Shown: positions 1 to 61,914 of the stretch, piece by piece
Numbering within the stretch: position 1 is the stretch's first letter
How the letters are laid out: each line of letters starts with the position of its first letter
Origin: Anaerolineae bacterium
GTDB lineage: Bacteria > Chloroflexota > Anaerolineae > B4-G1 > DUEL01
Direction of reading: 5' to 3'
Length of the DNA stretch: 64,000 nt
Assembly: GCA_016931695.1 (NCBI GenBank)
Contig: JAFGEI010000004.1
Span: 1 to 64,000 of the forward strand
Made by a program: the position numbers and the translations under genes
The notes under the pieces: model-generated
Database searches by the model: none
Told to the model about the DNA's origin: nothing
What the model saw: only the letters and a program-made list of their open reading frames with translations

Positions 1-77
1 AAGCGGCCAGGCCGGCGTTTCCGACGGGGATCTGACGATCCCCTCCGAGCAAGAACTGGTTGTTCATTTCGGCCGCG
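1..77. repeat. Family-1 repeat, copy 1 (77 bp, possibly truncated by the window edge). It differs at 3 of 77 positions from the copy at 8488-8564 and contains a GGGGATC-tgac-GATCCCC mini-hairpin.
   Basis: Direct alignment of 1-77 against 8488-8564 gives 3 mismatches. Both copies sit just 3' of minus-strand genes (greA, mcm) in the same orientation. Confidence 0.8.
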
Positions 78-139
78 ATGCACTAGGCCCCCTCTTGTAT
101 AACGAAGCAGCCTGCCGAAAGTAACGGGAAGCGAACCGA

Positions 140-613
140 TCATTCAATTTTCTCGATGCGGAAAAAAATGTCCCCGGCCGGCGCTTGCACGCGCACCCGC
201 TCCCCCACCTTGCAGCCCAGCAGCTCCCGTCCCAGCGGGGACTCGTAAGAGATGCGCCCCTCGATTGGGTCTGCTTCGGCCGGCCCGACGAGATGGAACG
301 CCTCGGTCTCGCCCAGCCCCTCTTCGACCACCGTGACCCGGCTGCCCAGGCGCACCTCCTCGGTCGTCCCTCCCTCGGCAATGATCACCGCCTGGCGCAA
401 CATGGCCTCGATCTCGAGAATTCGCCCCTCCAAAAAACCTTGCTCTTCCTTGGCGGTGATATAGTCGGCGTTCTCGGAGAGATCGCCCTGCTGGATTGCC
501 CGCCGCAGCCGTTCGGCCAGCGCCGGGCGGCGGACGTTGACGAGTTTATCCAATTCCTCCTGCAATCTTTCGATCCCCTCTGCAGTGAGGTGCACAGCTT
601 TTTGATTCATCAT
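140..613 (-). CDS. greA: Transcription elongation factor GreA
   Basis: The translation MMNQKAVHLTAEGIERLQEELDKL...GRISYESPLGRELLG is full-length and GreA-like. The start ATG at 613 overlaps the dgkA stop (ATGA). The long ORF upstream of 613 is an in-frame extension. Confidence 0.9.
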   Translation of the reverse strand: MMNQKAVHLTAEGIERLQEELDKLVNVRRPALAERLRRAIQQGDLSENADYITAKEEQGFLEGRILEIEAMLRQAVIIAEGGTTEEVRLGSRVTVVEEGLGETEAFHLVGPAEADPIEGRISYESPLGRELLGCKVGERVRVQAPAGDIFFRIEKIE

Positions 614-990
614 TCCCAGACCCCTCCGAACAATCGCTCCCACAGGGGCGGGCCGAGCAGGCACAGCCCTACCACTACCGAGGAGAGGGCAGCCAGCAAA
701 ACCGCTCCCGCCGACACATCCTTGGCCGCCTTGGCCAGCGGATGGAATTCGGGGCTGACCAGATCGATCAGCAATTCGATCACCGTGTTCAGCGACTCGA
801 CGACGAGCACAAAACCCACCGTCAGGGCAATCACCGCCCAATGGCCGGCCGGCAGTCTCAGCCACATCCCCAATCCGCACACGGCGGCGGCGATCAGCAC
901 ATGGATGCGCATGTTGCGCTGGGTGCGCAGGGCATAGCCCAGGCCCGCCAGAGCATAGGCAAAGCTCGACCAGAGGGTGCGGCAGCGCAT
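610..990 (-). CDS. dgkA: Diacylglycerol kinase (DgkA family), integral membrane
   Basis: The C-terminal 127 aa of ORF 610..1161 (MRCRTLWSSFAYALAGLGYALRTQRN...VESLNTVIELLIDL) match the DgkA family. The ORF was trimmed to the internal Met so it abuts the ybeY stop at 995. Confidence 0.8.
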   Translation of the reverse strand: MRCRTLWSSFAYALAGLGYALRTQRNMRIHVLIAAAVCGLGMWLRLPAGHWAVIALTVGFVLVVESLNTVIELLIDLVSPEFHPLAKAAKDVSAGAVLLAALSSVVVGLCLLGPPLWERLFGGVWE

Positions 991-994
991 GGCC

Positions 995-1480
995 TCAATC
1001 CAGCCAGGCGAGCTGCACGCCCAATGCCTCGAGGATGGCCTGCTGGGCGGCCCACATCCGGGCCCGGGCTGGCCCAGGCTGGTCGTCGTGCCCCAGCAGG
1101 TGCAGGACGCCGTGGACGACCAGCAGCTGCAGCTCGGCCAGAACGGAATGGCCCGCTTCACGTGCCTGTTCGGCGGCGCGCGGATAGGAAACGATCACGT
1201 CGCCCAGATAGTGGGGCTGTTCCAGCTCGTTCACAAACGGCCCCTCGTCCCCGCCGGGAAAAGCGAGGACGTCGGTGGGGGTGTCGACGGCGCGATAGCG
1301 TCGATTCAGCTCCTGAAGAGTCTCGTCGTCCGAGATCACGACAGTGACCTCGACCGGTGGCGCGCCCTGGTGCGACAGCGTCTCCAGGGCGGCGCGGTGC
1401 AGCATTGGCGCTTCCACCACGGGCCACTCTCGTTCAACTTGTACCTGGACCCAATACTGTTGGGCGGCCTCAGCGTCCAT
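995..1480 (-). CDS. ybeY: rRNA maturation endoribonuclease YbeY
   Basis: Contains the HGVLHLLGHDD metal-binding motif and is about 160 aa. Position after pgpH and before dgkA matches the B. subtilis yqfF-yqfG-dgkA order. Confidence 0.9.
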   Translation of the reverse strand: MDAEAAQQYWVQVQVEREWPVVEAPMLHRAALETLSHQGAPPVEVTVVISDDETLQELNRRYRAVDTPTDVLAFPGGDEGPFVNELEQPHYLGDVIVSYPRAAEQAREAGHSVLAELQLLVVHGVLHLLGHDDQPGPARARMWAAQQAILEALGVQLAWLD

Positions 1481-1532
1481 TTTTTACTCCCTGACTCGAA
1501 CCAGCGACGATGTCCAATCCCGGTCAGGATTG

Positions 1533-3701
1533 TCATGTCAGAACAGGCGCTTCCTCCTCTGTGGCAGCGATCTCGGGGTAATGAATCCGCGGATGGAACA
1601 CGCCCTTCAAGGTCGAAATGAAGGAATCTTGCACCATGGCCAGGTCCTTCATTGTGATGGGACATTCGTCCAATTGTCCAGAGCGGATGGCTCGGTCGAA
1701 AATCTTTTGCACTGCCTCGGCCAATTCCTCTGGCGAAGCGGGGCGATTGGCGCGGACGATCGCCTCCGAGCCATCTGCCAACATCACCAGGGCGGTCTCG
1801 CGGCTCTGGGGCTTGGGGCCCCGATGGCGGAAGAACGATTCGTCGACCAGCGAGGCGTCCCCTCCGGCCAACTCGACCGCCTTTTCGTACAAAAAACTGG
1901 CGCGGTTGGTGCCATGGTGCTCAGGGATAAAAGCTCGTATCTGGCTGGGCAGCCGGTAACGGCGGGCCAGTTCGAGGCCATCCTGGACGTGCTGGATGAT
2001 GATATCGGCGCTGGTACGTGGATCCAATTGCTGGTGTGGATTGACTCCCTCCATCTGGTTCTCGACGAAAAAGTAGGGGCGGGCGATTTTGCCCACGTCG
2101 TGATAGTATGCCCCAACCCGGGTGAGCAAAGCGTTGGCCCCAATCCGCTCGGCCGCCTGCTCCGCCAGGTTGGCGACCATCAGCGAATGGTGATAGGTTC
2201 CGGGCGATTCGCGCAGCAACCGCTGCAGCAGCGGTTGATCCGGCCGGCTCAGCTCGATGAGGCGAAACGTGGTGATGATGTCAAACAACGGACCGATGAG
2301 AAACAACAGGCCCAAGGCCATGCTGGCCGAGACCAGGCCGTTGACAATCGCGGCCAACAGGCTCAGCGTGACATCGACCAAATCCGTCCGTTCCAGCGGA
2401 AGTTGAAAGCCCAGCAGTACGACCACGTGAACCATGGCGACAAAGAGCGCTGCTCGAAAGAGGGCTCCGGGGTGATCCGCCTTTTGCAGTGACAGCGTGG
2501 CTACAAGCCCGCCCAGGACGGTATAGGAGGCCAACTCGAGCGGCTGGTTGGCGATCAAGCCGACGACGGCACCCATCAGCAGGCTGACCGCCAGGCCGGT
2601 ATGCTGGCCCAGGGTGACAGTCGCCAGCATGGCCAGCGCCGATGCAGGGTACAGATATTGCAATACCGTGCGGTCGGGCACCAGCAAGCGGGCCAGGAAG
2701 AAAAAGAGCGCCAGGAGCAGTCCCAACAACAACAGCTTGCGCCCTTCCCAGAGCACGTCAGGCTGGAAGCGGGCCAGGAAGAGGCCCAGGAGGACGACGG
2801 CGGCCAGGGCCAGCAGCCCCTGCCCGGCAACGTCGACCCAACTGGTGCGGGACTGTTGGAGGCCCAGTTCGCGCAGTGCTTCCAGGTCGAGCGCATCGAC
2901 CCGTTTGCCCTCGCGGACGACGATTTCGCCGGCCTCATAGTTGCGGAGAACCGGCGGGACCTGTTCGCGGGCCTGGTCGCGCGCGGCCTGGGTTGCCGCA
3001 GCATCGTAGAACGAGTTGGCGACAATGAGACGCCGCGCCAGGGCGGCCGTCACGTCTGCTTCCTCCGGGGAGAGGTCCAGCCCGACCAGCAAGGGCACTG
3101 CCTGCCACGCCTCGTCGACGAATCCGTCCACCACCCCCCGCCGCATCATCTCGTCGACAACGCTCAGGGTCTCGAGCTGCACCCGTCCCCACGATTCGTC
3201 GGACAGCGCCAACAGCCCGTCAGCGATCTCGATCGGCAGGTCTGCCAGTTCGGGGACCGCCAGCAGCCAGGCGCGTCGTTGGGTCGGCGTGGCGACGGTG
3301 TCCGCATGGACCGAGCCCAGGTAATCGAGCACCTGCTGGGTGCGGTCCAACTGTTCGCGAGCCAGCGCCGCGTCCGGCGGGGTATAGACCGGCTCAACCG
3401 CCTGTTCCGCCAGCCGCTGCTGTTCCATGGTGCGGATCTCGCTGTCAAACGTGATGCGCCGGGGGGCCCGGATGTCCCGCGGCGCGACGTCGCCCTCCTC
3501 CAACACCAGGCGACCAGAAGGGAAAAGGGGAAAGGCAAGCAAAAACGTGGCAAGGGCGACAAGGACCACGGCCATCAATACCAACCGGGTCCACACCCAC
3601 CAACTTTTTCGCTGCAAAGCGCCCATTCTTGATTGGTTCAGAGCAAAACATGGGGCGACCCGTTGGGTCGCCCCGCTACTGGATTCAACGACTCGGGTCA
3701 A
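1533..3701 (-). CDS. pgpH: 7TM-HD membrane phosphohydrolase (PgpH/YqfF-like, putative c-di-AMP phosphodiesterase)
   Basis: Large extracellular N-terminal region, 7 predicted TM helices, and a C-terminal HD domain (YYHDVGKIARPYFF, EHHGTN). Synteny with ybeY. The start is uncertain; 3626 is an alternative ATG. Confidence 0.85.
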   Translation of the reverse strand: MTRVVESSSGATQRVAPCFALNQSRMGALQRKSWWVWTRLVLMAVVLVALATFLLAFPLFPSGRLVLEEGDVAPRDIRAPRRITFDSEIRTMEQQRLAEQAVEPVYTPPDAALAREQLDRTQQVLDYLGSVHADTVATPTQRRAWLLAVPELADLPIEIADGLLALSDESWGRVQLETLSVVDEMMRRGVVDGFVDEAWQAVPLLVGLDLSPEEADVTAALARRLIVANSFYDAAATQAARDQAREQVPPVLRNYEAGEIVVREGKRVDALDLEALRELGLQQSRTSWVDVAGQGLLALAAVVLLGLFLARFQPDVLWEGRKLLLLGLLLALFFFLARLLVPDRTVLQYLYPASALAMLATVTLGQHTGLAVSLLMGAVVGLIANQPLELASYTVLGGLVATLSLQKADHPGALFRAALFVAMVHVVVLLGFQLPLERTDLVDVTLSLLAAIVNGLVSASMALGLLFLIGPLFDIITTFRLIELSRPDQPLLQRLLRESPGTYHHSLMVANLAEQAAERIGANALLTRVGAYYHDVGKIARPYFFVENQMEGVNPHQQLDPRTSADIIIQHVQDGLELARRYRLPSQIRAFIPEHHGTNRASFLYEKAVELAGGDASLVDESFFRHRGPKPQSRETALVMLADGSEAIVRANRPASPEELAEAVQKIFDRAIRSGQLDECPITMKDLAMVQDSFISTLKGVFHPRIHYPEIAATEEEAPVLT

Positions 3702-3736
3702 TCGTTGCCAACACGCTACCCTTGTCGAGGGGAGGC

Positions 3737-4183
3737 CTAGGAGATCAAGAGTTCTCGCACCACCTGGTTGACCAGCCGGCCGTCGGCCTGTCCCTTCATT
3801 TGAGGCATCAGTTGTTGCATCACCGCTCCCAAGTCGCCCGGCCCCGTGGCTCCTACCTCGGCAATGACCCGGCGGGCTTGCACGGCGATTTCTTCAGGTG
3901 TCAGCATCTGGGGGAGATATGTTTCCAGGAAAGCCAACTCCTGTTCTTCTTCGGCCAGTCGCTCCGGCCGGCTCGCCTCTTGCAGCTCCTCGATCGTCTC
4001 GCGGCGCTTCTTGGCCTCGCGTTGCAGCAGGGCCGCGAGAGCAGGCTCGTCCAGTTCGCCTCCTTGTTCCACCTCGGCCAATTGGATCGCCGCCAGGCAC
4101 ATGCGGATGACCGACTTGCGAAGCTCGTCCCGCTCGCGCAGGGCTTGTTTCAGATCCTCTTGCAGCTGCTCTTTCAGGCCCAC
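3737..4183 (-). CDS. yqeY: GatB/YqeY domain protein
   Basis: 148-aa protein with a typical YqeY sequence (LKQALRERDELRKSVIRMCLAAIQ...). GTG start with AGGAG 6 nt upstream, 9 nt after the rpsU stop. Confidence 0.85.
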   Translation of the reverse strand: MGLKEQLQEDLKQALRERDELRKSVIRMCLAAIQLAEVEQGGELDEPALAALLQREAKKRRETIEELQEASRPERLAEEEQELAFLETYLPQMLTPEEIAVQARRVIAEVGATGPGDLGAVMQQLMPQMKGQADGRLVNQVVRELLIS

Positions 4184-4192
4184 TTTTTTCTC

Positions 4193-4405
4193 CTACCGCC
4201 CATCTTGCCGGCGTTGAACCTTGTTCGTCGTCCGGCGGCTTTTGCGCAGCTTGGCCGCTCGCTTGCGCTTGCGGAGAATACTCGGCGGCTCGTAGAACCG
4301 CCGGCGCCGAACCTCGGAGAGAATCCGGTCATTCTGCACCCTCTTTTTGAAACGGCGCAACAAAGAGTCCAGGGACTCGCCATCTTCTGCAACCACGCGT
4401 GTCAC
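4193..4405 (-). CDS. rpsU: 30S ribosomal protein S21
   Basis: Sequence VTRVVAEDGESLDSLLRRFKKRVQ...FYEPPSILRKRKRAAKLRK matches S21. The GTG at 4405 is chosen because a GGGGAGGGGG SD lies upstream. The ORF track starts 4 codons earlier at 4417. Confidence 0.8.
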   Translation of the reverse strand: MTRVVAEDGESLDSLLRRFKKRVQNDRILSEVRRRRFYEPPSILRKRKRAAKLRKSRRTTNKVQRRQDGR

Positions 4406-4540
4406 TTTACGTCTCACCCCCTCCCCATGTGTACTTGGTAGCTCGCAACTGCTCAGCCAATCGCCCCTGGAGCATCGGCGACAACGGTGGGAGAACGTCC
4501 AGGGGCGAAATGCGGCCTTGTCAACGTAGCTACGGCGTCC

Positions 4541-4568
4541 ATTATAACCCAGGAAAAGGCTTTGTCAA
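4541..4568 (-). promoter_or_regulatory. Putative sigma70-type promoter of rpsU-yqeY (minus-strand TTGACA-16-TATAAT)
   Basis: Reverse complement reads cTTGACAaagccttttcctgggtTATAATgg. It lies upstream of the rpsU start. Confidence 0.45.
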
Positions 4569-4585
4569 GAGTACCGAATCACCCG

Positions 4586-5242
4586 TCAAGAACTGCTCTC
4601 CGGTTCCCAGATGTGGCGAATCTGTATGTCGTTGGACTCGAGCGAGGCGACCAGTTCCTCCCGATCCACTCCTTCGACCCGAAAGGCGAGGATACGATCC
4701 TGGGGCCCCTCGCCCCAGAAGGTGCCCAAAGAGTGGATGTTGCCGCCAACCTGGGCAATGCAATTGGCCAGTTGTGCCAGGCTGCCCACCCGCTCGGGGA
4801 TCGTCACCGTGACCCGCAGGCTGGGATGCCCGCCGCCCAATCCCTCGACAAAGACGCGAAAGATGTCGGTGTCGCTGATGATCCCCACCAGCCGATTGTC
4901 CTGGACAACGGGCAGGCAGCCGATCCGATGATCGACCATGATCCGCGCCGCTTCCTCGATCGGCACCTCGGGCGAGACCACGACGGTCTCTTGTTGCATA
5001 ATCTGGCTGACCATTGTCCGTGAGAGCAAGTAGTCGATCTCAAAGACGCTGAGGGAAAGATCCGGGCTTGGAGAAGCATAGACCAGGCTCTTTTCGGTGA
5101 CGATGCCGACCGGCCTGTTGTCCTCGTCGACGACAGGCAAGTGTCGAAACGGCTGGCTGCGGATAAGGGCCAGCGCATCCTTGAGGCTGGTCTCGGGCGT
5201 AATCGTTACTGGATTGGCTGTCATACGATCTTTTACTAACAT
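4586..5242 (-). CDS. CBS-pair plus ACT domain protein (AcuB-like)
   Basis: Two CBS motifs (HLPVVDEDNRPVGIVTEKSL; GCLPVVQDNRLVGIISDTDI) followed by an ACT-like C-terminus. GGGAGGT SD lies 5 nt before the ATG at 5242. Confidence 0.8.
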   Translation of the reverse strand: MLVKDRMTANPVTITPETSLKDALALIRSQPFRHLPVVDEDNRPVGIVTEKSLVYASPSPDLSLSVFEIDYLLSRTMVSQIMQQETVVVSPEVPIEEAARIMVDHRIGCLPVVQDNRLVGIISDTDIFRVFVEGLGGGHPSLRVTVTIPERVGSLAQLANCIAQVGGNIHSLGTFWGEGPQDRILAFRVEGVDREELVASLESNDIQIRHIWEPESSS

Positions 5243-5255
5243 TTCTTACCTCCCT

Positions 5256-5413
5256 TTGTAGCACGACAATGTAACTGCTCAGCCCGACCCGCGACGCACC
5301 TTCCCGAAAGCTTTACTGGCGCTCACTTCACACAGAGCACACGGTAGCGCAGGTTTCGATGAGCCGGGCAGGCGATTTTCAGCTTTTGGGAAGGCCGCCT
5401 GAGCGGCCCGAAC
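5256..5413. repeat. Family-2 palindromic intergenic element, copy A
   Basis: Left arm aactgctcagcccgacccgcgacgcaccttcccgaaagcttt and right arm cagcttttgggaaggccgcctgagcggcc form an imperfect inverted repeat of about 150 bp. The unit recurs at 12999-13071, 13258-13321 and 19357-19494. Confidence 0.65.
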
Positions 5414-5418
5414 GATAG

Positions 5419-5757
5419 CTAACCTGGCGGCCAGCCGAAGGAGCGCCCCCCCATCAGGTGCATGTGCAGGTGATAGATGGATTGTCCGGCCTGGAGGCCG
5501 GTATTGACGACCAGGCGATAGCCTTCAAGTTCCAATTCCTCGGCCAGGTGACGGGCCACCGTAAAGAGCCGGCCCAACGCCGGCTCGTCCACCGGCGTGA
5601 CCTGGTCTACCCCATCCAGGTGATGGTTGGGAACGATGAGAATGTGAACCGGGGCGCGGGGATGCAGGTCCTGGAACGCCGTAACCCGCTGGTCCTGGTA
5701 GACGATCTGTGCCGGTGCCTGGCCCTGGACGATGCGGCAAAAGATACAGTCTTTCAT
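5419..5757 (-). CDS. HIT (histidine triad) family hydrolase
   Basis: 112-aa protein with the HLHMHLMGG histidine-triad motif. It overlaps the mtaB stop by 4 nt. Confidence 0.9.
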   Translation of the reverse strand: MKDCIFCRIVQGQAPAQIVYQDQRVTAFQDLHPRAPVHILIVPNHHLDGVDQVTPVDEPALGRLFTVARHLAEELELEGYRLVVNTGLQAGQSIYHLHMHLMGGRSFGWPPG

Positions 5758-7025
5758 GCGCTGATTTCTCCGATCAACACGTTATTGGCGGTGCCCACCA
5801 TCCGTGTCCGGGTAATGCGATTGTGCAGGTCTGCCTGCAAGGCGACCGTTACCGGCAAATAGTTGTCGGTCCAGCCGCGCCAGCGTCCATTCTGGCCGCG
5901 CTCCCACAACACGTCTATTTCCTGGCCGACGTGCTGTTGGCGAAAGCGCGCCGCCAGCCGTTCCCCCAACTCGCGCATGCGGCGGGCCCGTTCCTGCCGC
6001 ATGGGGACGGGAACCTGGTCGTCCATCTGCGCAGCACGCGTCCCCGGCCGGGCCGAAAAGGGAAAAACGTGCAGGCGGGCAAAGCCTATTTGCGCTACAA
6101 AGGCCTGGCTTGCGGCAAAGTCCGCCTCGTCCTCGCCGGGAAAGCCAACTATGAGATCGGTAGTCAGCGCCAGGCCGGGAATGGCGGCACGGGCGGCCGC
6201 CGCCAACTGTGCGTACTGCCCGGTATCGTTGCGCCGTCCCATCCGCCGCAGCGTGGCGTCACAGCCAGACTGCAGGGGCAGGTGAAGCTGGCGGCAGAGG
6301 CGCGGGTCGGACCATAGTTCCAGGTCCCGCTCTGCCAGGTCCCACGGTTCCAGGGAAGAGAGGCGCAGGCGGGGCAGGCGCGTCTGCGCCAGGATCGCCT
6401 CCACCAGGCCGGCCAGCCCCCGCTCTATTCCCCGCTCGCGGCCATAGGCGCCCAGATTGACCCCGGTGAGCACGACTTCCCGGTATCCTTCTGCTACGCG
6501 CTGCCGGACCTCGGCCACGACCTCGGCCGACGAGCGGCTGCGGGATGGCCCGCGCAGCAGCGGGACGATGCAGTAGGCGCAGCGGTTGTCGCACCCATCC
6601 TGGACCTTGACGAAAGCGCGGGTGTGCAGAAAAGCGCCGAGGTCTTGTCCGCCTGCTGGCAGGGGGAACGTGGTATCGGGAGAGAGATCATACAGCAGGA
6701 TGTCGACCACCCGCTCTTTTTCGTCGTTGGGAATGACCCATTTGACGCCGGGGAGCTGGCCCAGTTTCCCGGCGTGCAGCGTCGCCGCGCAGCCGACAAC
6801 CGCAATCCGTAGCACGGGATTCGCCCGCCGCAGCGAGCGCAGCAGCCGGCGCCCTTTTTTCTCGGCGCTGGCAGTCACCGCGCAGGTGTTGACGACGCAC
6901 AGGTCTGCCTGGGCCGGATCGCCGACCAGGATCTGCCCTGCCGCCGCCAGGTGGCGGGCGAACGACTCGGTCTCACTCCGGTTCAGGCGACAGCCCAGGC
7001 TGTGGAGATAGACGCGCTGGCTCAT
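5754..7025 (-). CDS. mtaB: Radical-SAM methylthiotransferase, MtaB/YqeV-like (MiaB family)
   Basis: N-terminal MTTase Cys triad (LGCRLN...C..C), radical SAM CAYCIVP motif, and a TRAM-like C-terminus. Position near rpsU matches B. subtilis yqeV. Confidence 0.85.
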   Translation of the reverse strand: MSQRVYLHSLGCRLNRSETESFARHLAAAGQILVGDPAQADLCVVNTCAVTASAEKKGRRLLRSLRRANPVLRIAVVGCAATLHAGKLGQLPGVKWVIPNDEKERVVDILLYDLSPDTTFPLPAGGQDLGAFLHTRAFVKVQDGCDNRCAYCIVPLLRGPSRSRSSAEVVAEVRQRVAEGYREVVLTGVNLGAYGRERGIERGLAGLVEAILAQTRLPRLRLSSLEPWDLAERDLELWSDPRLCRQLHLPLQSGCDATLRRMGRRNDTGQYAQLAAAARAAIPGLALTTDLIVGFPGEDEADFAASQAFVAQIGFARLHVFPFSARPGTRAAQMDDQVPVPMRQERARRMRELGERLAARFRQQHVGQEIDVLWERGQNGRWRGWTDNYLPVTVALQADLHNRITRTRMVGTANNVLIGEISA

Positions 7026-7040
7026 GCGGTTTACAGTCGA

Positions 7041-7640
7041 TTACGGCGGGGTGACGTGTAGGTTGTCAAAGTGAATTTCAACCCCGCCCTGATAAAACGT
7101 GCCGGCATAGAGGCCGACATTGCCGTGGGAGAACTGTCGATCCTCCACGCGGGCCAACTCTTGCCCGTTGACGACCAGGATCAACGCGCTGCCCTGGGCA
7201 GTCACTTCGATCACGTTGGTCGCCTGTCCCTGGCGAATCGCTTCTGTTGGCGTCCAGTTCCCTCCCAGCAGCTCGGGCGTTCCATCGACAAACTTGCTGA
7301 CCAGGAAATAACCATCCCCGCTGATGGAAAAGCGGTAAAAATTGTCGCTGTCCTCCATTCGCAGCAGCACGCCGTACTCGTTATCGTCGGGCCCGGCGAC
7401 CTGGGTGGCCTCCACGGTGAGGTGAAAATCTCTCAGGTCCTGGCTGGCTGTCGCCCACGCCAGTTGGTTCGGCACGATGACATAGACGCGCAGCACGCCG
7501 TCCTGCACTCCGACCTGGGCCGTGGCGTCGGATTCCACCTGCCAGGCTCCCGGCGAGGCGAAATCCTCGTTCCAAGACACGTCCCCGCCCACACAGGCGG
7601 CCAGCAACAGCGCCAGGAGCAACAGCCAGCCTTTTTTCAT
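7041..7640 (-). CDS. Secreted lipoprotein, unknown function (beta-rich domain), paralog of the downstream-adjacent gene 7637..8284
   Basis: Signal peptide plus lipobox (LLLAACVGG). Shares the motif pattern GYFLVSKFVDG...NVGLYAG...HFDNLHV with 7637..8284. Confidence 0.65.
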   Translation of the reverse strand: MKKGWLLLLALLLAACVGGDVSWNEDFASPGAWQVESDATAQVGVQDGVLRVYVIVPNQLAWATASQDLRDFHLTVEATQVAGPDDNEYGVLLRMEDSDNFYRFSISGDGYFLVSKFVDGTPELLGGNWTPTEAIRQGQATNVIEVTAQGSALILVVNGQELARVEDRQFSHGNVGLYAGTFYQGGVEIHFDNLHVTPP

Positions 7641-8284
7641 TCCTGCTCCTCGGGAGCGACGACCCGCAGATCGTCAAAGTGAACGCGGATCGCCCCCCCT
7701 GTTCCGGTTCCCACTCCCAGGCCGACGTCGCCGCGCCGGAGACTGCCGTCGATCACGCTGGCCACCTGCTGCCCGTCGACGTAGAGGGTGAGCCGATCGC
7801 CCTGGCATACCGCGCGGATTACGTACCGGTCCCCGGTGGGACGAACGCCACTGGACTGTAAAAGCCCCTCTCCAGTCAGCGCCTGCGCCTCGCCATCCTG
7901 CACGCGGAGGATGCCATAATACCCCGCGTCGGCCACCGCAAAGTAGTAAAAGCTGTCCGGCGACTGGTAGCGGCAGATCAGGCCAAAGTGCCCGTTTGCC
8001 GCGCCGGACACCGGCCGGGCCTCGACGTCGATCACCACGTCGGTCAAGCGGTGGTGCGAGCGCGACCAGACAAACCACTGCGGCTCGTACACCTCGATAA
8101 AGTATTCCCCTTCCTGGTACCCCTGGTCAAACATCTCCTGGCTTTCGACCGCCCAACCGCTGTCGGGATTGCCGAACCGATCCTCAAGCAGCGGCTCCTC
8201 ATCTTCCCGGCAGCCTGCGAGCACGAGAAGGGCCACCGCCAGCACGACGGGCAGGACGTGTACGAACCGGTTTTTTGCGCTCAT
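7637..8284 (-). CDS. Secreted lipoprotein, unknown function, tandem paralog of 7041..7640
   Basis: Lipobox VLAGCRED. Shares the motif pattern GYYGILRVQDG...DVGLGVG...HFDDLRV. Four-nt overlap with the downstream paralog. AGGAGGGG SD before the ATG at 8284. Confidence 0.65.
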   Translation of the reverse strand: MSAKNRFVHVLPVVLAVALLVLAGCREDEEPLLEDRFGNPDSGWAVESQEMFDQGYQEGEYFIEVYEPQWFVWSRSHHRLTDVVIDVEARPVSGAANGHFGLICRYQSPDSFYYFAVADAGYYGILRVQDGEAQALTGEGLLQSSGVRPTGDRYVIRAVCQGDRLTLYVDGQQVASVIDGSLRRGDVGLGVGTGTGGAIRVHFDDLRVVAPEEQE

Positions 8285-8314
8285 TCATTCCCCTCCTGGA
8301 TGGCAGTCAGGTCG

Positions 8315-8343
8315 ATTATATCACGTCGTAGAGGCTCGGCCAA
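8315..8343 (-). promoter_or_regulatory. Putative promoter of the lipoprotein pair (minus-strand TTGGCC-17-TATAAT)
   Basis: Reverse complement of 8315-8343 reads TTGGCCgagcctctacgacgtgaTATAAT. It lies about 30 nt upstream of the ATG at 8284. Confidence 0.45.
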
Positions 8344-8402
8344 TTTCTCCTCTTTGCTAGTACACGCAGGCGAAAATACCCCGCCGGTTCTATGCCTGCC
8401 CT

Positions 8403-8456
8403 GGATCCCCGCGCCTGTCCCCGCTTCCGCGGGGATCCGCGGGGACAGGCGCGGGG
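8403..8456. other. GC-rich nested palindrome capable of two mutually exclusive hairpins
   Basis: Arms ccccgcgcctgtccccg (8407-8423) and cggggacaggcgcgggg (8440-8456) are perfect 17-nt complements. Alternatively ggatccccgcg (8403-8413) pairs with cgcggggatcc (8428-8438). Located between the mcm 3' end and the lipoprotein promoter. Confidence 0.6.
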
Positions 8457-8487
8457 ACTTGCGGGAATCCTGGCCCCAGGCCTCGGT

Positions 8488-8564
8488 AAGCGGCCAGGTC
8501 GGCGTTTCCGACGGGGATCTGACGATCCCCTCCGGGCAAGAACTGGCTGTTCATTTCGGCCGCG
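8488..8564. repeat. Family-1 repeat, copy 2, ending at the mcm stop codon
   Basis: 74 of 77 positions identical to window positions 1-77. Sequence diverges exactly at the mcm stop (8565-8567). Confidence 0.8.
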
Positions 8565-10226
<1,662 letters not shown>

Positions 10227-10249
10227 GGCTCTGCTCCTTCCCGCGCGAG

Positions 10250-11692
10250 TCACGCGATCACCTGGCCCTGCATGTCCGGCGGCACGCGCAGCCCCATCCA
10301 CTGTAACACCGTGGGCGCCACGTCCATCAACTGCATCCCGGCGACAGTTCGACCACCATAGTTTCGCCGCGGGTCCCACAGGATCAACACCCCATCCTGG
10401 TCGTGATTTGCGTCATCCGGCCCTGTGTCGTTCTCGGTCGTGTAGAGCTGGGGCAGCCCAAAAGAGCCGACCGCCCGCCAGCGCAGGTTGCCGAAATAGA
10501 CCAGCAGGTCGGGGGCGACGTTGCGCACCTCCCGGTAAAGTTCCTGCGGCTTGAAGGCGACCGAGCCCATCGGCTCTCCCGCGGGATCGGGGATCGCTTC
10601 GATCCGCTCTTTCAGTTCGTCGCGCGCCTGTTCGTAGCGGGCGGCGGGGATCTTGCCCTGCGGCTCCCGTCCCTGCACGTTCATAAAGATGCGCGAATAG
10701 TAGCCGCCGGCCCCCCAGGCGGTCGTTCGTTCCCAATCGACCTCCACCTTCTCGAAGGGGACCAGCCCCTCGTGGGGCATCTCGTCCTCCTTGAGCACCA
10801 GCAGCCCCTCCTGTCGCAGCCACTCGTTGACGGCAAAGCCCCCTTCCATCGCCTGGGCGCCGTGGTCGGAAACCACCATCACCACGGTGTCGTCGTCCAG
10901 CATGCCCAGTATCTCGCCCAATTCTCGATCCAGGTAGCGATAGTAGGCGGGGATGGCATCCTGGTAGCGGTTACCCGGTTCGTGCCTGGCGTGCGCGGGG
11001 TCCCAGAATTTCCACATGCCGTGGTGGATGCGGTCCAGCCCGATCTCGACGAACATGAAGAAATCCCACGGCTTTTCCCGCAGCAAGTATTTGATCACCG
11101 CGAACCGTTTCTCGGTCATCTCCTGGATCTGTCGCAAGAGATGGTCCTTGTCCTCGGTGCGGAACTGGGGAACGTCGACGTCATAGATGCGCCCCGCGAG
11201 GACCTGGTCGATCTCGTGGCGCAGCTCGTTGGGAAACGTGTATTGGCGCTGAGTGCTGGGGGTCAGGAAACTGCTGACCAGGTTGCCCCGCAGGGGGCGG
11301 ATGGGGTACGTCTGCGGCACGCCGACGACGACCGAGGTCTTGTCCGCCGCGCTCAAAATGTCCCAGACCCGTTTTTCGTGGATGGCGTCGGCGGTCGCGA
11401 TGGTCATGCGGTCGTAGGAGTGATCGGCCCGGTTGCGAAAGCCATAGAACCCCAGCACGCCAGGATCCTTGCTGGAGAGCATCGAGGTCCAGGCCGGGAC
11501 GGTGATGCAGGGGATGGAACTGGACAGGGGGCCGTAGAGCCCCTCGTCGATCAAGCGGCTCAAGTTGGGCAGTTGGTCCTTCAGGCCGATGCGGCTCTCT
11601 GCGCCGGTCTGGAACAACACCGGCGGCGGGGCACAATCGAGCCCGACGACGAGGACCTTGCGGGACTTTTGACGCGAGAATAGCTTGAGCAT
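10250..11692 (-). CDS. Alkaline-phosphatase superfamily protein (type I phosphodiesterase / nucleotide pyrophosphatase-like)
   Basis: Metal and catalytic motifs of the AP/NPP family ([25 protein letters not shown]). 480 aa. Confidence 0.75.
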
Positions 11693-11763
11693 AAGAAATC
11701 CTTTCTAGCACAATGTTCCAGGGTTCAGGCTTGAGACACTCAACCTGAAATCTGGAACTTGTC

Positions 11764-13257: not shown

Positions 13258-13321
13258 TTTTGTTGTCACGACAATTTTCCTGGGCGGGAGAGCTTCCAGG
13301 CGGGCAGCCTGAGCAGTTGCC
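13258..13321. repeat. Family-2 intergenic element, partial (copy C)
   Basis: ttgttgtcacgacaat matches ttgtagcacgacaat at 5256. gagcttccaggcgggcagcctgagcagttgcc matches the right arm of the 19357-19494 copy. Confidence 0.55.
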
Positions 13322-19353: not shown

Positions 19354-19356
19354 GTG

Positions 19357-19494
19357 ACTGCTCAGGCCACCTTCCCGAAAGCTACAACGTGCCCGTCTGA
19401 TGGGCCGAAATCCGCTGTAGCGAGCAATCTGGTACAAACCAGGAGCGCCGGAGCTTTCGGGAAGGTGCATCGCGAGCATAGCTGAGCAGTTGCC
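19357..19494. repeat. Family-2 palindromic intergenic element, copy B, immediately after the dppF stop
   Basis: Left arm gactgctcaggccaccttcccgaaagct. Right arm gagctttcgggaaggtgcatcgcgagcatagctgagcagttgcc. The reverse complement of the right arm nearly equals the left arm of copy A. Confidence 0.7.
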
Positions 19495-25001: not shown

Positions 25002-25165
25002 GAAAATTGCCGGTAATACCCAGGCTTGCCAGCCTGGGTGCTCTCTTGTACCGGAGAGGGGGAAAAAGTGGGTGCTGGCGCCCACCTCTTTCCCCTTCCC
25101 GGGCTTGGGAGAGCGCCGAGGGGAAGCTGGCTGAGCAATTACCATACGGAACAAAGGAGGAAACA

Positions 25166-57051: not shown

Positions 57052-60000
57052 ATGCCAAAACGGATTTTCCTTCTGTTGGGTACAATTTGCCTTAGCTTGA
57101 CCGCGCTCTGGGGACTGGCGGCACTCCTTTTCCCAGCCGTTCACGCCGACGGACCGCAGGGCTGCATCGAGATCACTGCCGACATCGCTGCGGATACCAC
57201 CTGGGATGCTCCCTGCTATCGGGTCATGACCTCTACGGTCACCGTGCTGCCCAACATCATCCTGACCATTTCCCCCGCCGTCACCGGCACGCGGGTCGAG
57301 TTCGTCGACAACGCCCAACTCCAGGTAATGGGCACCCTGCGGGCCCTGGGCAGCCCGGCCCATCCCATTACTTTTACCTCGGCCAACCCTGGCAGCGGCG
57401 AATGGGTCGGCATCATCCTGGAGGATGATAGCGGCGGGGACCGCATCCAGTATTCGACCGTCGAGTACGCCCGCACCGGGGTCAAGATCAACGACGAGGA
57501 CGACGTACAGGTCCTGAGCAGCACGTTTCGCTACAACGGCGGCAGTGGGAGTCACGAGGGGGCCATCGGCGGCGACACGGACTATTCCCGCATTGCCGGC
57601 AACATTGTCTATTCCTGTACCAACGGCATCGTCCTGAACGAGTCTTTTGACAACGAGATTACGGGCAACACTATCTATGACATCGAGCGGTATGGCGTGG
57701 CCTTTGTCGAGGATCCGACGGTAGGCGGCTCGAACAACCTGGTCGCCGACAACACGATCTATAACTGCACCGCAGGGGCGGTGCGGCTGGAGAACGGCGC
57801 TTTCAACGACCTGCTGGGCAACCGGGTCTATCTCAACCCCGGCGGGGCCCTCTACCTTTCCGACCAGGTCGGTTCGAGCGTGCAGGCCAACCACGTCTAT
57901 AGCAACGGCGGTGGACTCGACTATGCCGCCGCGCTCTACGTCGCTGGCACCAGCGCCATCGACACCGTGGCCCAGAACGTGATCTACGAGGAAACGACTG
58001 GTGCCGAGGCGGTCTGGTTTGAGGAGGGCAGCGCCATGTGGCCCGGATCGCTGATGGCGGTCAATGCCCTTTGCTCGATCGACAGCTACGAGCTGCAGAA
58101 CGACGGGTCGACCATCGAAGCGCCTCACGACTGGTGGAGCAGCAACGACCCGGCGAGCAACATCCTCGGCCCGGTCAATTACACCCCCTGGATCAGCCTC
58201 TCCATCACCGGCGACGCCCGCGGCGTGATCACGGTCACGCTGCGGGACGCGGACGGCCTGACCGTGCCGCCGCCGCCCGACCCGCAGGCGCCTCCGGCGC
58301 CCAACGCCCGCCGGGTCCGCCTGTCGACCAACTGGGGCAGCGTCAGCCCGGCGCTTCTTGAGGTGAACGACGCCGGCATCGGCACGGCGACGCTGATCCC
58401 CGGCGGGGGGACAGCCCCACCGACCATCATCCTCACCGCGACGGGTTTCTGCGGCTATGCCACCTCCGGCGTGGTCCAGCTGCCCAACCTGGCGCTGACC
58501 AAGACGACCGCCGTCAGCCAGGTGGTCGCCGGGGGGACGATTGCCTACCAGATCCATTATCTCAACGACAGCGCCGTCGCCGCCAGCGACGTGCACATCA
58601 CCGACACGCTGCCTGCTGGGACGACCTGGGCTGGCGACACTGCGCCGGCGGCGGGTTGGACCCGCCTGTCGACCGCGCCGCCCATTTGGCAGCGGGCGAC
58701 GCTGGGGCCCGGCGTGAACGGCAGTTTTACTCTCTCCGTCACTGTCGCCCCCACCGCGCCCTGCGGCGCCGAATTGGTCAACTGGGCCGCCATCGGCACG
58801 GATCTGCTGGAGACGAGCCTGGCCGATAACAGCGACAGCGCAGGGCCGGTGACGGTCATCGGCCCCGACGTGACTATCGCCAAGACGACCCCGCTGCTCG
58901 AGGTGGCGGCGGGCGGCCTGCTCACCTACACCATCGCCTACAGCAACCCCGGCCAGGCCGGCGCGGCGGACGTGTTCGTCGGGGACGACCTCCCTGCCTG
59001 GACCAGCTACGTCGCCGACGACAGCGGCCTGCCCTGCCCGGCCTGCATCCCCGGCGGGACGGGGCCGCTGGAGTGGGATGCGGGTTCGCTGAACGCCGGC
59101 GAGGGGCACAGTTTCAAGCTCGTGCTGCGGGTTGACGGCGATCCCGCCGCCTGCGGCGCGGCGCTGACCAACGCTGTCGCCATCAGCACCAGCACCCCCG
59201 AGTGCGACGTCCTGCCCAACAGCGCGGCGGCGACGCCGGTGACGGTCATTGGCGCCGACGTGACCATCGCCAAGACGACTGCGCTGACCGAGGTCGTGGC
59301 GGGCGGCCTGCTCACCTACACCATCACCTACAGCAACGTCGGCCCCGTTGATGCGGCGGGGGTGGTGATCACCGACCTGCCGCCGACCTGCACCACCTAC
59401 GTCACCAGCAGCCCGCCCTGCGCAAGCTGCCCGCCCACCGGCCCGCTGACCTGGGATATTGGGCCGCTGGCGGTCGGCCAGCGGCAGAGCATCGAGCTGG
59501 TGCTGCGGGCCGACGAGGATCCGGCCTGCTACGGCCAGGGGCTGGTCAATACCGCGATCATCAGCACGACCACGGTCGAGTGCGGGACGGCGCCGAATAT
59601 CGCCTATTCCGAGTTGACCACCCTCGTCCGCGGCGGGGTCGACCTGGTGGTGGTCAAGGACGACGACATCGGCCCCATTTCGCTGGGCGGGCCTGCACGG
59701 CGGACAGCGCTGGAGCGCCTGCTCGCCCCTGTCCCGACTGCCCACCGCGATTTCGTCTACGAAGGGGACATTGTCACCTACACCATCGCCGTGGTCAACG
59801 TCGGCACCGTCACCGCAACCCGCGTCGTGCTGACCGAGACCCTGCCCCAGCACACCGACTACCTGGGCGTCGGCTGGAACCTGGTCGCCGGCCGCACTTA
59901 TACCCAGGCGGTGGGCACGCTGGCCCCCGACGAGGGGCGCATCTTTTACTTTGTCGTCCAGGTGCACGACCCGATGACCGAGTGCGTCACCAACCTGGTC

Positions 60001-61914
60001 AACCAGGTCTGCGGTTTTGGGGCCGAGGAGGACCTCGATCCCGAGGATAACTGCAACTATGAGGACACGCCGGTCCGCTGCTACCCGCTGCGCGTGAGCA
60101 AGATTGCCGAGCCTTGCGTCTCGCCGGGCGAGACCTTTCGCTATACCATCACCTACCAGAACCGGACCACCGACACGACTTTCTTCGACGTTACCCTCAC
60201 CGACACCCTCGACGTCGAGGTCAGCTATGCCGGGGCGGGCGCGTGGGACTGCAACGGCCGCATCTGCACCCGCACCGTGCTGACCATCCCTCCGGGAGTC
60301 AGCGACACGCTGCACCTGCAGGCCCGGCTCAGCGCCTCTTTTCCCTATACCATTCGTACTACTTTTAGCAACGTGATCGAAATCGAGGGCGGCAACCGCT
60401 TTGTCCTTTTCAGCCCCATCGACACCGGCCCCGACCTGGCGGTGGTGAAAAACGACAACGTCGGCCCGGTGCCGCCGCCGCTGGGCAGCCTGTGGGACCA
60501 GCTGTCCCGGCGCCTTGGCCTGCCCGAACAAGCCGCGCCGCAGCGGGAGTTTGTGCGGCCCGGCGATCCCATCACCTACACCATCCTCTACCTCAACCAG
60601 GGCATCAGCCCGACGACGGACGTGGTGCTGATCGAGCGCCTGCCCGACTATACCCGCTACGTCGGCGGCGGCTGGACGGCCATCGGCGGCCGGCACTACC
60701 AGCTCGACGTCGGCGACCTGGCGCCGGGCGCGGGCGGCGTGGCCGAGTTCATTGTCCAGGTGGATGATCCCTTCCCGCCCGGCGTCGACCGGGTGGTGAA
60801 CCGGGTCGACATTGCCGGGGCGGTGCCAGAGTGCGACATGCGCAACAACTGGTCGGCCGACGACACGCCGGTGCGCACCGGGGTCAACCTCTACGTCGCC
60901 AACCTGGAGTCGCACACCGTCGACGTCTTTGACGCCGCCACCTTTGCCTACTCTCTCTCCATCCCCATCGAGAACCCCTTTGGCATGGCCGCCTCGGCCG
61001 CGCACCTCTTTGTCGCCAATTTCGAGGACGGGAGCTATACCAGCACCCTGACCGCCGTCGACCTGGGGGACCACGCTGTTGCCGGGATGCCGGGCGTGGG
61101 CCGCCATCCCATCCACGTTGCCCACTACGATGGCCTCGTCTACGTCGCCAACCACAGCGGCGGCGAGGGAATCACCGTCGTCGACGCCCAGCCGCCCTTC
61201 CCGGTGGTGGCCCGCCTGCGGCCGGACCGCCGCCAGACCTACGACTTTGGCTTCTTTGGCGTCGCCGTCGACGCGACGCGGGGGCGCATCTATGCCACCA
61301 AGCGGGATTTCGGCAGCCAGGGCATCTGGATGATCACCCCCTCCGGCGGCACGTTCCAGTTCGATTACGTGGTCGATACGGGGGAGGAGAAACCGAGCTC
61401 CATCGTCTACAATCCCATCCTGGACCGGGTGTACGTCACCTTTGGCCTGGTCGACGAGCTGTGGGTCTTTGATCCCGACACCTGGGAGTTGCTGCAGGTC
61501 ATTCCCACCGGGCACCAGGACCCGGTTGATCCCGGTTACGGCGGGCACGGCCTGGCGACCATTGGCCGCTGCGTCTTTGTCAGCAACTATATGGAGGAAT
61601 CGATCACCGCGGTCATCGAGGGGAGCTGTACGGAAGACGGCAGCGCCGTCGGGCCGCCCTCCCCGCCCGCCGGTCCCTATCGGGTTTACCTGCCCATCGC
61701 CAACCGGGACTGGATGGGCCGGCAGGTGGTGCTGACCGTCCCGCTGACCAGCCGGCCCAAGGGGCTGGCAGCGGCGGGCAACCTGCTGCTGGTGACGCTG
61801 CCTTTCGAGGACCAGATCGCCATCGTCGATCTGCTGACGCTGCAGGTCTCGACGCGCGAGATCGCCGTGCTGGGCGACCATCCGCATACCGTGACCTTTG
61901 CCGGGGGACGCTAG
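57052..61914 (+). CDS. Giant secreted surface protein (1620 aa): N-terminal right-handed beta-helix (NosD/pectate-lyase-like), five or more DUF11-type repeats, C-terminal YVTN beta-propeller
   Basis: Signal peptide. Periodic NxxxxN/GNT beta-helix turns. Repeated modules (VTVIGxDVTIAKTT...LLTYTIxYSN.G...A..V.V.D.LP..T.YV). YVANLESHTVDV, LFVANFEDGS, VYVANHSGGEG. The ATG at 57052 has GGCAGGAGGT. Confidence 0.8.
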   Translation: MPKRIFLLLGTICLSLTALWGLAALLFPAVHADGPQGCIEITADIAADTTWDAPCYRVMTSTVTVLPNIILTISPAVTGTRVEFVDNAQLQVMGTLRALGSPAHPITFTSANPGSGEWVGIILEDDSGGDRIQYSTVEYARTGVKINDEDDVQVLSSTFRYNGGSGSHEGAIGGDTDYSRIAGNIVYSCTNGIVLNESFDNEITGNTIYDIERYGVAFVEDPTVGGSNNLVADNTIYNCTAGAVRLENGAFNDLLGNRVYLNPGGALYLSDQVGSSVQANHVYSNGGGLDYAAALYVAGTSAIDTVAQNVIYEETTGAEAVWFEEGSAMWPGSLMAVNALCSIDSYELQNDGSTIEAPHDWWSSNDPASNILGPVNYTPWISLSITGDARGVITVTLRDADGLTVPPPPDPQAPPAPNARRVRLSTNWGSVSPALLEVNDAGIGTATLIPGGGTAPPTIILTATGFCGYATSGVVQLPNLALTKTTAVSQVVAGGTIAYQIHYLNDSAVAASDVHITDTLPAGTTWAGDTAPAAGWTRLSTAPPIWQRATLGPGVNGSFTLSVTVAPTAPCGAELVNWAAIGTDLLETSLADNSDSAGPVTVIGPDVTIAKTTPLLEVAAGGLLTYTIAYSNPGQAGAADVFVGDDLPAWTSYVADDSGLPCPACIPGGTGPLEWDAGSLNAGEGHSFKLVLRVDGDPAACGAALTNAVAISTSTPECDVLPNSAAATPVTVIGADVTIAKTTALTEVVAGGLLTYTITYSNVGPVDAAGVVITDLPPTCTTYVTSSPPCASCPPTGPLTWDIGPLAVGQRQSIELVLRADEDPACYGQGLVNTAIISTTTVECGTAPNIAYSELTTLVRGGVDLVVVKDDDIGPISLGGPARRTALERLLAPVPTAHRDFVYEGDIVTYTIAVVNVGTVTATRVVLTETLPQHTDYLGVGWNLVAGRTYTQAVGTLAPDEGRIFYFVVQVHDPMTECVTNLVNQVCGFGAEEDLDPEDNCNYEDTPVRCYPLRVSKIAEPCVSPGETFRYTITYQNRTTDTTFFDVTLTDTLDVEVSYAGAGAWDCNGRICTRTVLTIPPGVSDTLHLQARLSASFPYTIRTTFSNVIEIEGGNRFVLFSPIDTGPDLAVVKNDNVGPVPPPLGSLWDQLSRRLGLPEQAAPQREFVRPGDPITYTILYLNQGISPTTDVVLIERLPDYTRYVGGGWTAIGGRHYQLDVGDLAPGAGGVAEFIVQVDDPFPPGVDRVVNRVDIAGAVPECDMRNNWSADDTPVRTGVNLYVANLESHTVDVFDAATFAYSLSIPIENPFGMAASAAHLFVANFEDGSYTSTLTAVDLGDHAVAGMPGVGRHPIHVAHYDGLVYVANHSGGEGITVVDAQPPFPVVARLRPDRRQTYDFGFFGVAVDATRGRIYATKRDFGSQGIWMITPSGGTFQFDYVVDTGEEKPSSIVYNPILDRVYVTFGLVDELWVFDPDTWELLQVIPTGHQDPVDPGYGGHGLATIGRCVFVSNYMEESITAVIEGSCTEDGSAVGPPSPPAGPYRVYLPIANRDWMGRQVVLTVPLTSRPKGLAAAGNLLLVTLPFEDQIAIVDLLTLQVSTREIAVLGDHPHTVTFAGGR

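Follow-up and report, generated by a model that had tools for sequence, protein, structure and literature searches.

Correia and BOX elements are small intergenic mobile units of bacterial genomes. Together with miniature inverted-repeat transposable elements (MITEs) and further units such as the enterobacterial RU/ERIC units (PMC2759123) they offer one comparison. The repetitive extragenic palindromic (REP) elements, which together with their inverted doublets (REPINs) are linked to RAYT transposases, have been catalogued by Di Nocera et al. 2013 (PMC3733652). For the phylum Chloroflexi this catalogue gives only GTAG repeats, and its CGTC families have stems of 8-9 bp that begin with A-T pairs (PMC3733652). 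Here we describe a repeat that is present twice in a stretch of 64 kb (contig JAFGEI010000004.1, referred to throughout as the window) from a metagenome-assembled genome (MAG) of an Anaerolineae bacterium, where it follows greA and the gene for methylmalonyl-CoA mutase. The matching stretch of 77 nt is read, with about even confidence, as a non-coding and lineage-restricted dispersed repeat of REP/MITE-like character, a small unit organised around a hairpin module of 28 nt. The repeat is apparently undescribed, since full-text literature searches found no REP-type repeat for Anaerolineae and Rfam gave no match.

The repeat pair behind greA and the mutase gene

The two copies (copy 1 at 1-77, copy 2 at 8488-8564) are identical at 74 of 77 positions (96%; within-window blastn E ~1e-32) and lie 8.4 kb apart in direct orientation. 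They differ at repeat positions 12, 48 and 60, and the longest run of consecutive identical bases is at most 35. Both are extragenic, in unrelated contexts, and stand 3′ of minus-strand genes, copy 1 beginning 62 nt after the greA stop codon and copy 2 following the mutase stop codon at a distance of 0 nt. The proximal (right) edge of the repeat is sharp in both cases (77/78 and 8564/8565), and the flanks diverge at once and share nothing. An original prediction, made from the sequence alone, had described a 77-bp repeat with three mismatches, oriented identically relative to the preceding gene and ending, in copy 2, exactly at a stop codon. The matching stretch is real, and the gene coordinates confirm both the shared orientation relative to greA and the mutase gene and the abutment of copy 2 (end 8564) on the mutase TAG. 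The number 77 is nevertheless not the length of the element: copy 1 starts at window base 1, the distal end lies off the window, and 77 bp is therefore a lower bound. No third copy was found in the 64 kb by blastn-short, by nhmmer, by a 25-mer scan allowing up to 3 mismatches or by a covariance-model scan with filters off.

The start of the window is probably also the start of a contig that was broken at the repeat. For an arbitrary cut, a copy lying exactly at window base 1 would be a coincidence of ~0.1%, while such a position is expected if contigs break at repeats. The uninterrupted identity between the two copies, no more than 35 bases, is too short for copy 2 to halt a modern assembler, and a break at this point would thus imply at least one further near-identical copy elsewhere in the genome. 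The length of 77 may itself be the k-mer size of the assembler; 77 is a common SPAdes k-mer setting.

An independent assembly supports the position of copy 1. The Logan contig L001 (SRR13394437, 4.8 kb) carries greA and extends 20 nt into the repeat, far enough to cover the base at repeat position 60 that is specific to copy 1; this confirms that the repeat adjoins the greA flank. The break of L001 at position 58 was considered as a repeat boundary and dropped, since its terminal k-mer (k = 31) still holds unique flank; low coverage or a strain variant more likely explains it. On the far side, a Logan contig from the same sample ends at window 8385, just before a GC-rich hairpin that lies beyond copy 2.

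The hairpin module in a second Anaerolineae genome

Each copy contains a 28-nt module with the consensus GCTC-NNN-GGGGATC-GTCA-GATCCCC-GTC, consisting of a 7-bp stem, a 4-nt loop and unpaired flanks. The mini-hairpin GGGGATC-TGAC-GATCCCC of the original prediction was found in both copies at its centre (Table 1). The 24-nt core of the module, CGACGGGGATCTGACGATCCCCTC, was scanned for exact matches in 596 Gb of species-representative genomes and also in Joint Genome Institute (JGI) metagenomes, where by our own calculation ~0.004 chance matches are expected for a random 24-mer. Matches occurred in one organism only, another Anaerolineae MAG, with one among the genome contigs (DAOTXC010000006.1, here L002) and one among the metagenome contigs (Ga0209614_1000676, here L003). 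No match to the core was found among viral contigs, nor among plasmids and phages by blastn.

Covariance-model and motif scans located the module four times within ~18 kb of the second MAG (S1 to S4 in Table 1), always between genes and in both orientations. In S3 and S4 the sequence CCGGATC...GATCCGG replaces GGGGATC...GATCCCC, which amounts to two compensatory pair changes from G-C to C-G. All 7 stem pairs are kept in all 6 module copies, the two of the window and the four of the other MAG, and every pair is a standard one. S2 and S3 constitute inverted 24-nt arms (4428-4451 and 4520-4543) separated by 68 nt; S4 and S1 make up another doublet. The arms S2 and S3 close a unit of ~116-133 nt which folds as one long hairpin (z = -3.8) and recurs 4.2 kb away with 89% identity over 110 nt. 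The flanks of the module are wholly different in the two genomes; it is the 28-nt hairpin module that they have in common and not the 77-mer. Specificity to this lineage, as originally proposed, is accordingly roughly right for the 77-mer but wrong for the hairpin core.

The second copy of the longer unit is split by an AT-rich insert of ~190 nt that, judged by eye, has inverted ends of its own (CTYYACTGAAAAAA) and a 10-bp direct duplication (TCCGGCGTGG; L003 1480-1650, minus strand). From its sequence this insert looks like a nested MITE insertion.

Other Anaerolineae with GreA identities of 71-77% lacked the module in ~150 kb around greA, much of which represents overlapping copies of the same locus, and neither the covariance model nor the motif matched downstream of greA in these relatives. 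This absence gives the module a patchy distribution, as is expected for mobile or selfish repeats. A hairpin whose structure is conserved together with its unpaired flanks, which is always intergenic and found in both orientations, which forms doublets in one genome and singletons in the other within different longer repeats, and which is taxonomically patchy, points to a repeat of the REP/MITE type. Of the three options in the original prediction, a REP-like element is consequently the best supported, by the dispersal of the core and by the inverted doublets and compensatory changes in the second MAG. The other two, a small RNA of the 3′ untranslated region (UTR) and the target site of an RNA-binding protein, found no match in Rfam and were neither strengthened nor eliminated.

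Table 1. Locations of the repeat copies, hairpin modules and neighbouring elements. Numbers refer to the window; L002/L003 are the contigs of the second MAG.
Feature	Location	Strand	Description
Repeat copy 1	1-77	minus	62 nt downstream of the greA stop codon (140-142); distal part cut by the window start
Repeat copy 2	8488-8564	minus	first base directly after the mutase TAG stop codon (8565-8567)
28-nt hairpin module, copy 1	23-50	minus	GCTCGGA-GGGGATC-GTCA-GATCCCC-GTC; stem-loop proper 26-43
28-nt hairpin module, copy 2	8510-8537	minus	stem-loop proper 8513-8530
Large near-perfect GC hairpin	8403-8462		stem of ~20 bp, -56 kcal/mol, z = -7.5
Sigma-70-like promoter match	8315-8343	minus	TTGGCC, 17 nt, TATAAT, with TG; consensus match only
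Module S1	L002/L003		upstream of a membrane-protein gene
Module S2	L002/L003		starts 36 nt after an Hsp20 gene stop; orientation to the upstream gene as in the window
Module S3	L002/L003		~30 nt upstream of a second Hsp20 gene
Module S4	L002/L003		upstream of scpA

The occurrence of the core in a second genome bears directly on a simpler explanation of the pair, namely a single local duplication event, or a patch left by ectopic repair or gene conversion, that has neither mobility nor function, the hairpin of the other MAG then being an unrelated common sequence. In its favour, only two copies are seen, 8.4 kb apart and in direct orientation, the exact-core scans gave no other contig of the source genome, and a crude motif search found no transposase nearby. 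We still consider this explanation unlikely. The proximal flanks share nothing, chance is very unlikely to produce an exact match of 24 nt to an intergenic repeat that has several copies in another Anaerolineae MAG, and the family in that MAG displays compensatory stem changes. The copy at the probable contig start also suggests an assembly break at a multi-copy repeat.

The same stem changes are informative with respect to a DNA operator. The palindrome GGGGATC-N4-GATCCCC is a perfect 7-4-7 arrangement and could be the site of a dimeric regulator with the remainder of the 77-mer carried along. In the second MAG 3 of the 4 modules are situated 30-120 nt upstream of gene starts, including that of an Hsp20 gene, and the modules there adjoin a promoter-associated motif. 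This is a quite improbable explanation in our judgement, since both window copies are located behind genes and face 3′ ends, and copy 2 precedes the nearest promoter-like -35 hexamer by ~145 nt. Conservation extends to the asymmetric loop and to flanks that are likewise asymmetric (GCTC... and ...GTC), a feature needless for a symmetric operator, and the change of the two outer stem pairs with pairing kept argues for structure rather than for base-specific reading of the duplex.

For the REP/MITE-like repeat one may envisage, by analogy only, that copies spread to new intergenic sites through a single-strand DNA transposase of the RAYT or IS200/IS605 type that would recognise the hairpin and act in trans, and that copies persist where they are harmless, just after stop codons. 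Each window copy would be contained in the 3′ end of a transcript, that of greA or that of the mutase gene, and hence probably be co-transcribed; as has been described for REPs, the hairpin or hairpins may then incidentally shield the 3′ end of the mRNA or assist termination. On this analogy, a secondary role of the hairpins in 3′-end protection is plausible.

Fold, coding potential and surroundings of the repeat

The minus strand of the 77-mer is the sense strand of the upstream genes. In isolation it is predicted to fold into a four-way junction made up of a closing stem (GCGGCCG/CUGGCCGC) and three hairpins, GAAC-ANCCA-GUUC, GGGGAUC-GUCA-GAUCCCC and GUCGG-AAACG-CCGRC. The minus-strand fold reaches z ~-3 for either copy, compared with -1.8 for the plus strand. 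Of the three substitutions, viewed on the minus strand, the first lies in a loop and another in a junction; the remaining one turns a U-A pair into U.G, which would be a C.A mismatch if the plus strand were the folded one. Dinucleotide shuffles, and random 77-mers drawn from the GC-rich window, also yield a closing stem of at least 7 terminal pairs in 4-5% of cases, and in copy 2 both the closing stem and hairpin 1 are lost in several sequence contexts. The 7-bp hairpin forms in every context tested, with a pair probability of 1.0 save in one context (0.59). Only this hairpin is robust in the predictions, and the four-way fold, with its strand asymmetry and the placement of the substitutions, is suggestive but weak evidence. 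The four-way junction as the defining feature of the element was downgraded after the shuffle and context tests.

These predictions are of importance for the possibility that the repeat is a functional structured RNA of 3′ UTRs, either a processed small RNA or an element for protein binding or stabilisation, which adopts the four-way junction on the minus strand. The lower z on that strand in both copies and the structure-neutral character of all three substitutions would fit such an RNA, as would the sense orientation of both copies directly behind genes and the succession of copy 2, a strong hairpin and a promoter-like site. We regard it as rather unlikely, since neither Rfam nor tRNA models match, the closing stem is found in controls and vanishes together with hairpin 1 in several contexts of copy 2, and two sequences with three differences yield no real covariation. 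In the other MAG the module stands in both orientations relative to genes, which is in better agreement with an element acting at the DNA level, and the covariance model has no match in the greA loci of relatives.

A more ambitious version of the dispersed-repeat reading may also be formulated. In it a dedicated protein, either an RNA-binding protein or a single-strand DNA transposase of the HUH type, would recognise the 28-nt module, and the module would mark a REPIN-like sequence population kept vertically in Anaerolineae; in this genome it would have become part of a 77-nt unit with a four-way junction, released from mRNA 3′ ends by processing. This version is improbable. If true, it would represent a REPIN-like system with a dedicated protein in a class without a described example.

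The repeat was also compared with known classes of structured and arrayed elements. Rfam returned nothing at either window copy up to E = 5 and nothing at the L002 repeats. ARAGORN gave only three true tRNAs in the window, at 19.6-19.9 kb, and no Rfam tRNA match was obtained up to E = 5; a tRNA-like cloverleaf was rejected, its loop sizes of 5, 4 and 5 nt being unsuited. A scan for intrinsic terminators found no site in 1-140 or in 8285-8567. Behind the mini-hairpin comes GUCGGAAAC and behind the large hairpin beyond copy 2 comes CCAGGGCAGG, neither of which is the U tract of an intrinsic terminator. A CRISPR array and an integron attC site were both rejected, as the copies are 8.4 kb apart and flank housekeeping genes; no attC core sites (RYYYAAC / GTTRRRY) were seen by eye in the repeat sequences.

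Two reading frames are open across the repeat, one on the minus strand that begins with ATG (MNNQFLLGGDRQIPVGNAGLAA... in one copy and MNSQFLPGGDRQIPVGNADLAA... in the other) and one on the plus strand which, at copy 1, continues to a TAA at 119-121. The ATG frame had been pointed out originally, with the remark that no Shine-Dalgarno sequence was shared; the frame is present and none precedes its ATG. The repeat could on these grounds be a small minus-strand open reading frame (ORF), or else the final 25 codons of a plus-strand gene situated beyond the left edge of the window, copy 2 then being a dead fragment. The latter is reminiscent of the closest relative with a greA contig, where the convergent gene def ends 9 nt from greA. 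A coding origin is nonetheless very improbable, and protein-coding sequence was rejected. Among 5.8 billion clusters no protein shares three 5-residue words with either peptide, in a protein database that does contain GreA of the source MAG itself (MBN1953437.1), and a Pfam search of the repeat peptides gave no match. Each of the 3 substitutions alters the encoded residue in either frame (N/S, L/P and G/D on the minus strand; A/V, E/G and V/A on the plus strand), including the non-conservative changes L to P and G to D. Furthermore, the ORF of copy 2 passes through the 20-bp hairpin, the peptide is unlike the C-terminus of def, and the core is intergenic in the other MAG.

Turning to the surroundings, greA is encoded on the minus strand at 140-613 (PF03449/PF01272) and its product shows 100% identity to MBN1953437.1, and the mutase gene is complete with respect to its domain, matching positions 2-512 of the 512 of PF01642. 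The large GC hairpin is located 25 nt beyond copy 2, between this copy and the next promoter-like site, and lacks a U tract; weak matches of Rfam microRNA models to it merely reflect its hairpin shape. This hairpin could act like a terminator or belong to a longer repeat, in which case the counterpart at copy 1 would be off the window. The promoter-like site, running from 8343 to 8315, precedes the downstream lipoprotein operon and bounds the mutase 3′ region that holds copy 2. The order of GC hairpin and promoter-like site beyond copy 2 places this copy within the 3′ UTR of the mutase gene.

The genes from miaB-like, HIT, CBS, rpsU, yqeY, 7TM-HD, ybeY and dgkA to greA constitute a block that is syntenic across Anaerolineae (window 1-11700 compared with the contigs L006, L007 and L010). 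Synteny stops at both edges of the block; in the window genome both repeat copies sit where it ends, and two lipoprotein genes are added inside. Beyond greA the order breaks in the relatives, the next gene being def, an aminotransferase gene, FUR or SHOCT. In L006 (10500-10800; GreA identity 74%) greA is followed by a gap of 365 nt containing a stretch that by eye resembles a tandem glycine riboswitch, ahead of the aminotransferase gene.

Other short motifs are repeated in the window as well. The 13-mer GCTGAGCAGTTRC is strongly over-represented, with 10 matches at no more than 2 mismatches against 1.1 expected and a maximum of 4 in 100 shuffles. Its sites include window 4445-4457, 5271-5283, 13308-13320, 19354-19366, 19481-19493 and 25130-25142, as well as L002 4415-4427. 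Several precede gene starts by 25-85 nt (rpsU, the CBS/ACT gene, tRNA-Gly and others) and point to the gene, and one fits the sigma-54 spacing TGGC-N7-TTGC. In the other MAG a variant, TGAGYAGWTAC, occupies those ends of the hairpin repeat unit that face outward. Judged from these positions, the 13-mer could be a lineage-specific promoter or leader motif. A second small repeat of 40 nt (5273-5312 and 19452-19491, 85% identical and inverted) reads AGCTTTCGGGAAGGTGC-N-GCTGAGCAGTT toward the downstream gene, and its copies precede the CBS/ACT gene and the tRNA-Gly/Cys/Leu cluster. There is a third, shorter copy at ~19366-19395 and, near 5395, a partial inverted one. Finally, a large ORF contains, at 58828-60635, tandem coding units of ~390 nt with the recurring peptide-level motif TYTI.Y.N.G, which by eye is DUF11-like.

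Comparison with known repeat systems

As it stands, the repeat is an ordinary kind of feature, common in bacteria, observed in two copies. Small hairpin repeats do, however, shape operon boundaries, mRNA stability, genome rearrangement and the breaks in metagenome assemblies. If the family is large, it would provide an entry to REP/REPIN biology in an uncultured and environmentally abundant class and a marker for assembly and strain typing.

Several observations weigh against the REP/MITE-like interpretation. Just two copies were observed in the 64 kb, and the exact 24-mer scans gave no other contig of the source genome, so that either this genome is outside the collections or it holds no further exact copies. 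The GTAG tag of published REPs was not found adjacent to the stem. CGTC is present in 4 of the 6 copies, only on the 3′ side and overlapping the last stem base, and a 7-bp stem that begins with G-C is unlike those of the families CGTC-1 to CGTC-4. The window modules are singletons within a longer 77-nt repeat and not doublets. A RAYT-like motif (Y..NP) was absent from the six-frame ORFs of the window in a crude regular-expression search; in the other MAG, inspection by eye of the 4.2 kb that separates the two repeat copies revealed none. Complementarity between the ends of the 77-mer covers 7 bp and is not significant, given its frequency in shuffled and random 77-mers. Copy 2 shows no evident target-site duplication; for copy 1 the distal flank is off the window. 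In view of the missing tag, the repeat is labelled REP/MITE-like and is not assigned to a named family.

The ends of IS200/IS605 elements are comparable in that a perfect short hairpin is found ~27-44 nt from a sharp element boundary, and recognition of such an end would be based on structure, which is consistent with the compensatory stem changes. They differ in that no tnpA or tnpB is in view and that the flanks have no common cleavage or target tetranucleotide (GCAT versus CTAG). As to MITEs, the 77-mer has a terminal inverted repeat of no more than 7 bp, the real distal end of the element lies off the window and no parent insertion sequence is known. The likeness consists in a unit of ~80-150 nt with complementary ends and internal hairpins which lies between genes and in which fortuitous open frames are possible; in the second MAG it extends to a unit that was split by a small insert with a 10-bp duplication.

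The comparison with REPs and REPINs is the closest in terms of the module itself. REPs number tens to hundreds of copies per genome, against 2 in 64 kb here. Like a REP, the 28-nt module is a short conserved palindromic stem-loop unit within the size range of 20-40 nt, and it has conserved unpaired flanks. REPs are extragenic and mostly found just downstream of coding regions; the window copies are 3′ of genes and the four copies of L002/L003 are intergenic. The module further resembles these elements in occurring in both orientations and in being patchy and lineage-restricted, and in the second MAG it is arranged, as in REPINs, in inverted doublets ~68 nt apart that fold as a long hairpin.

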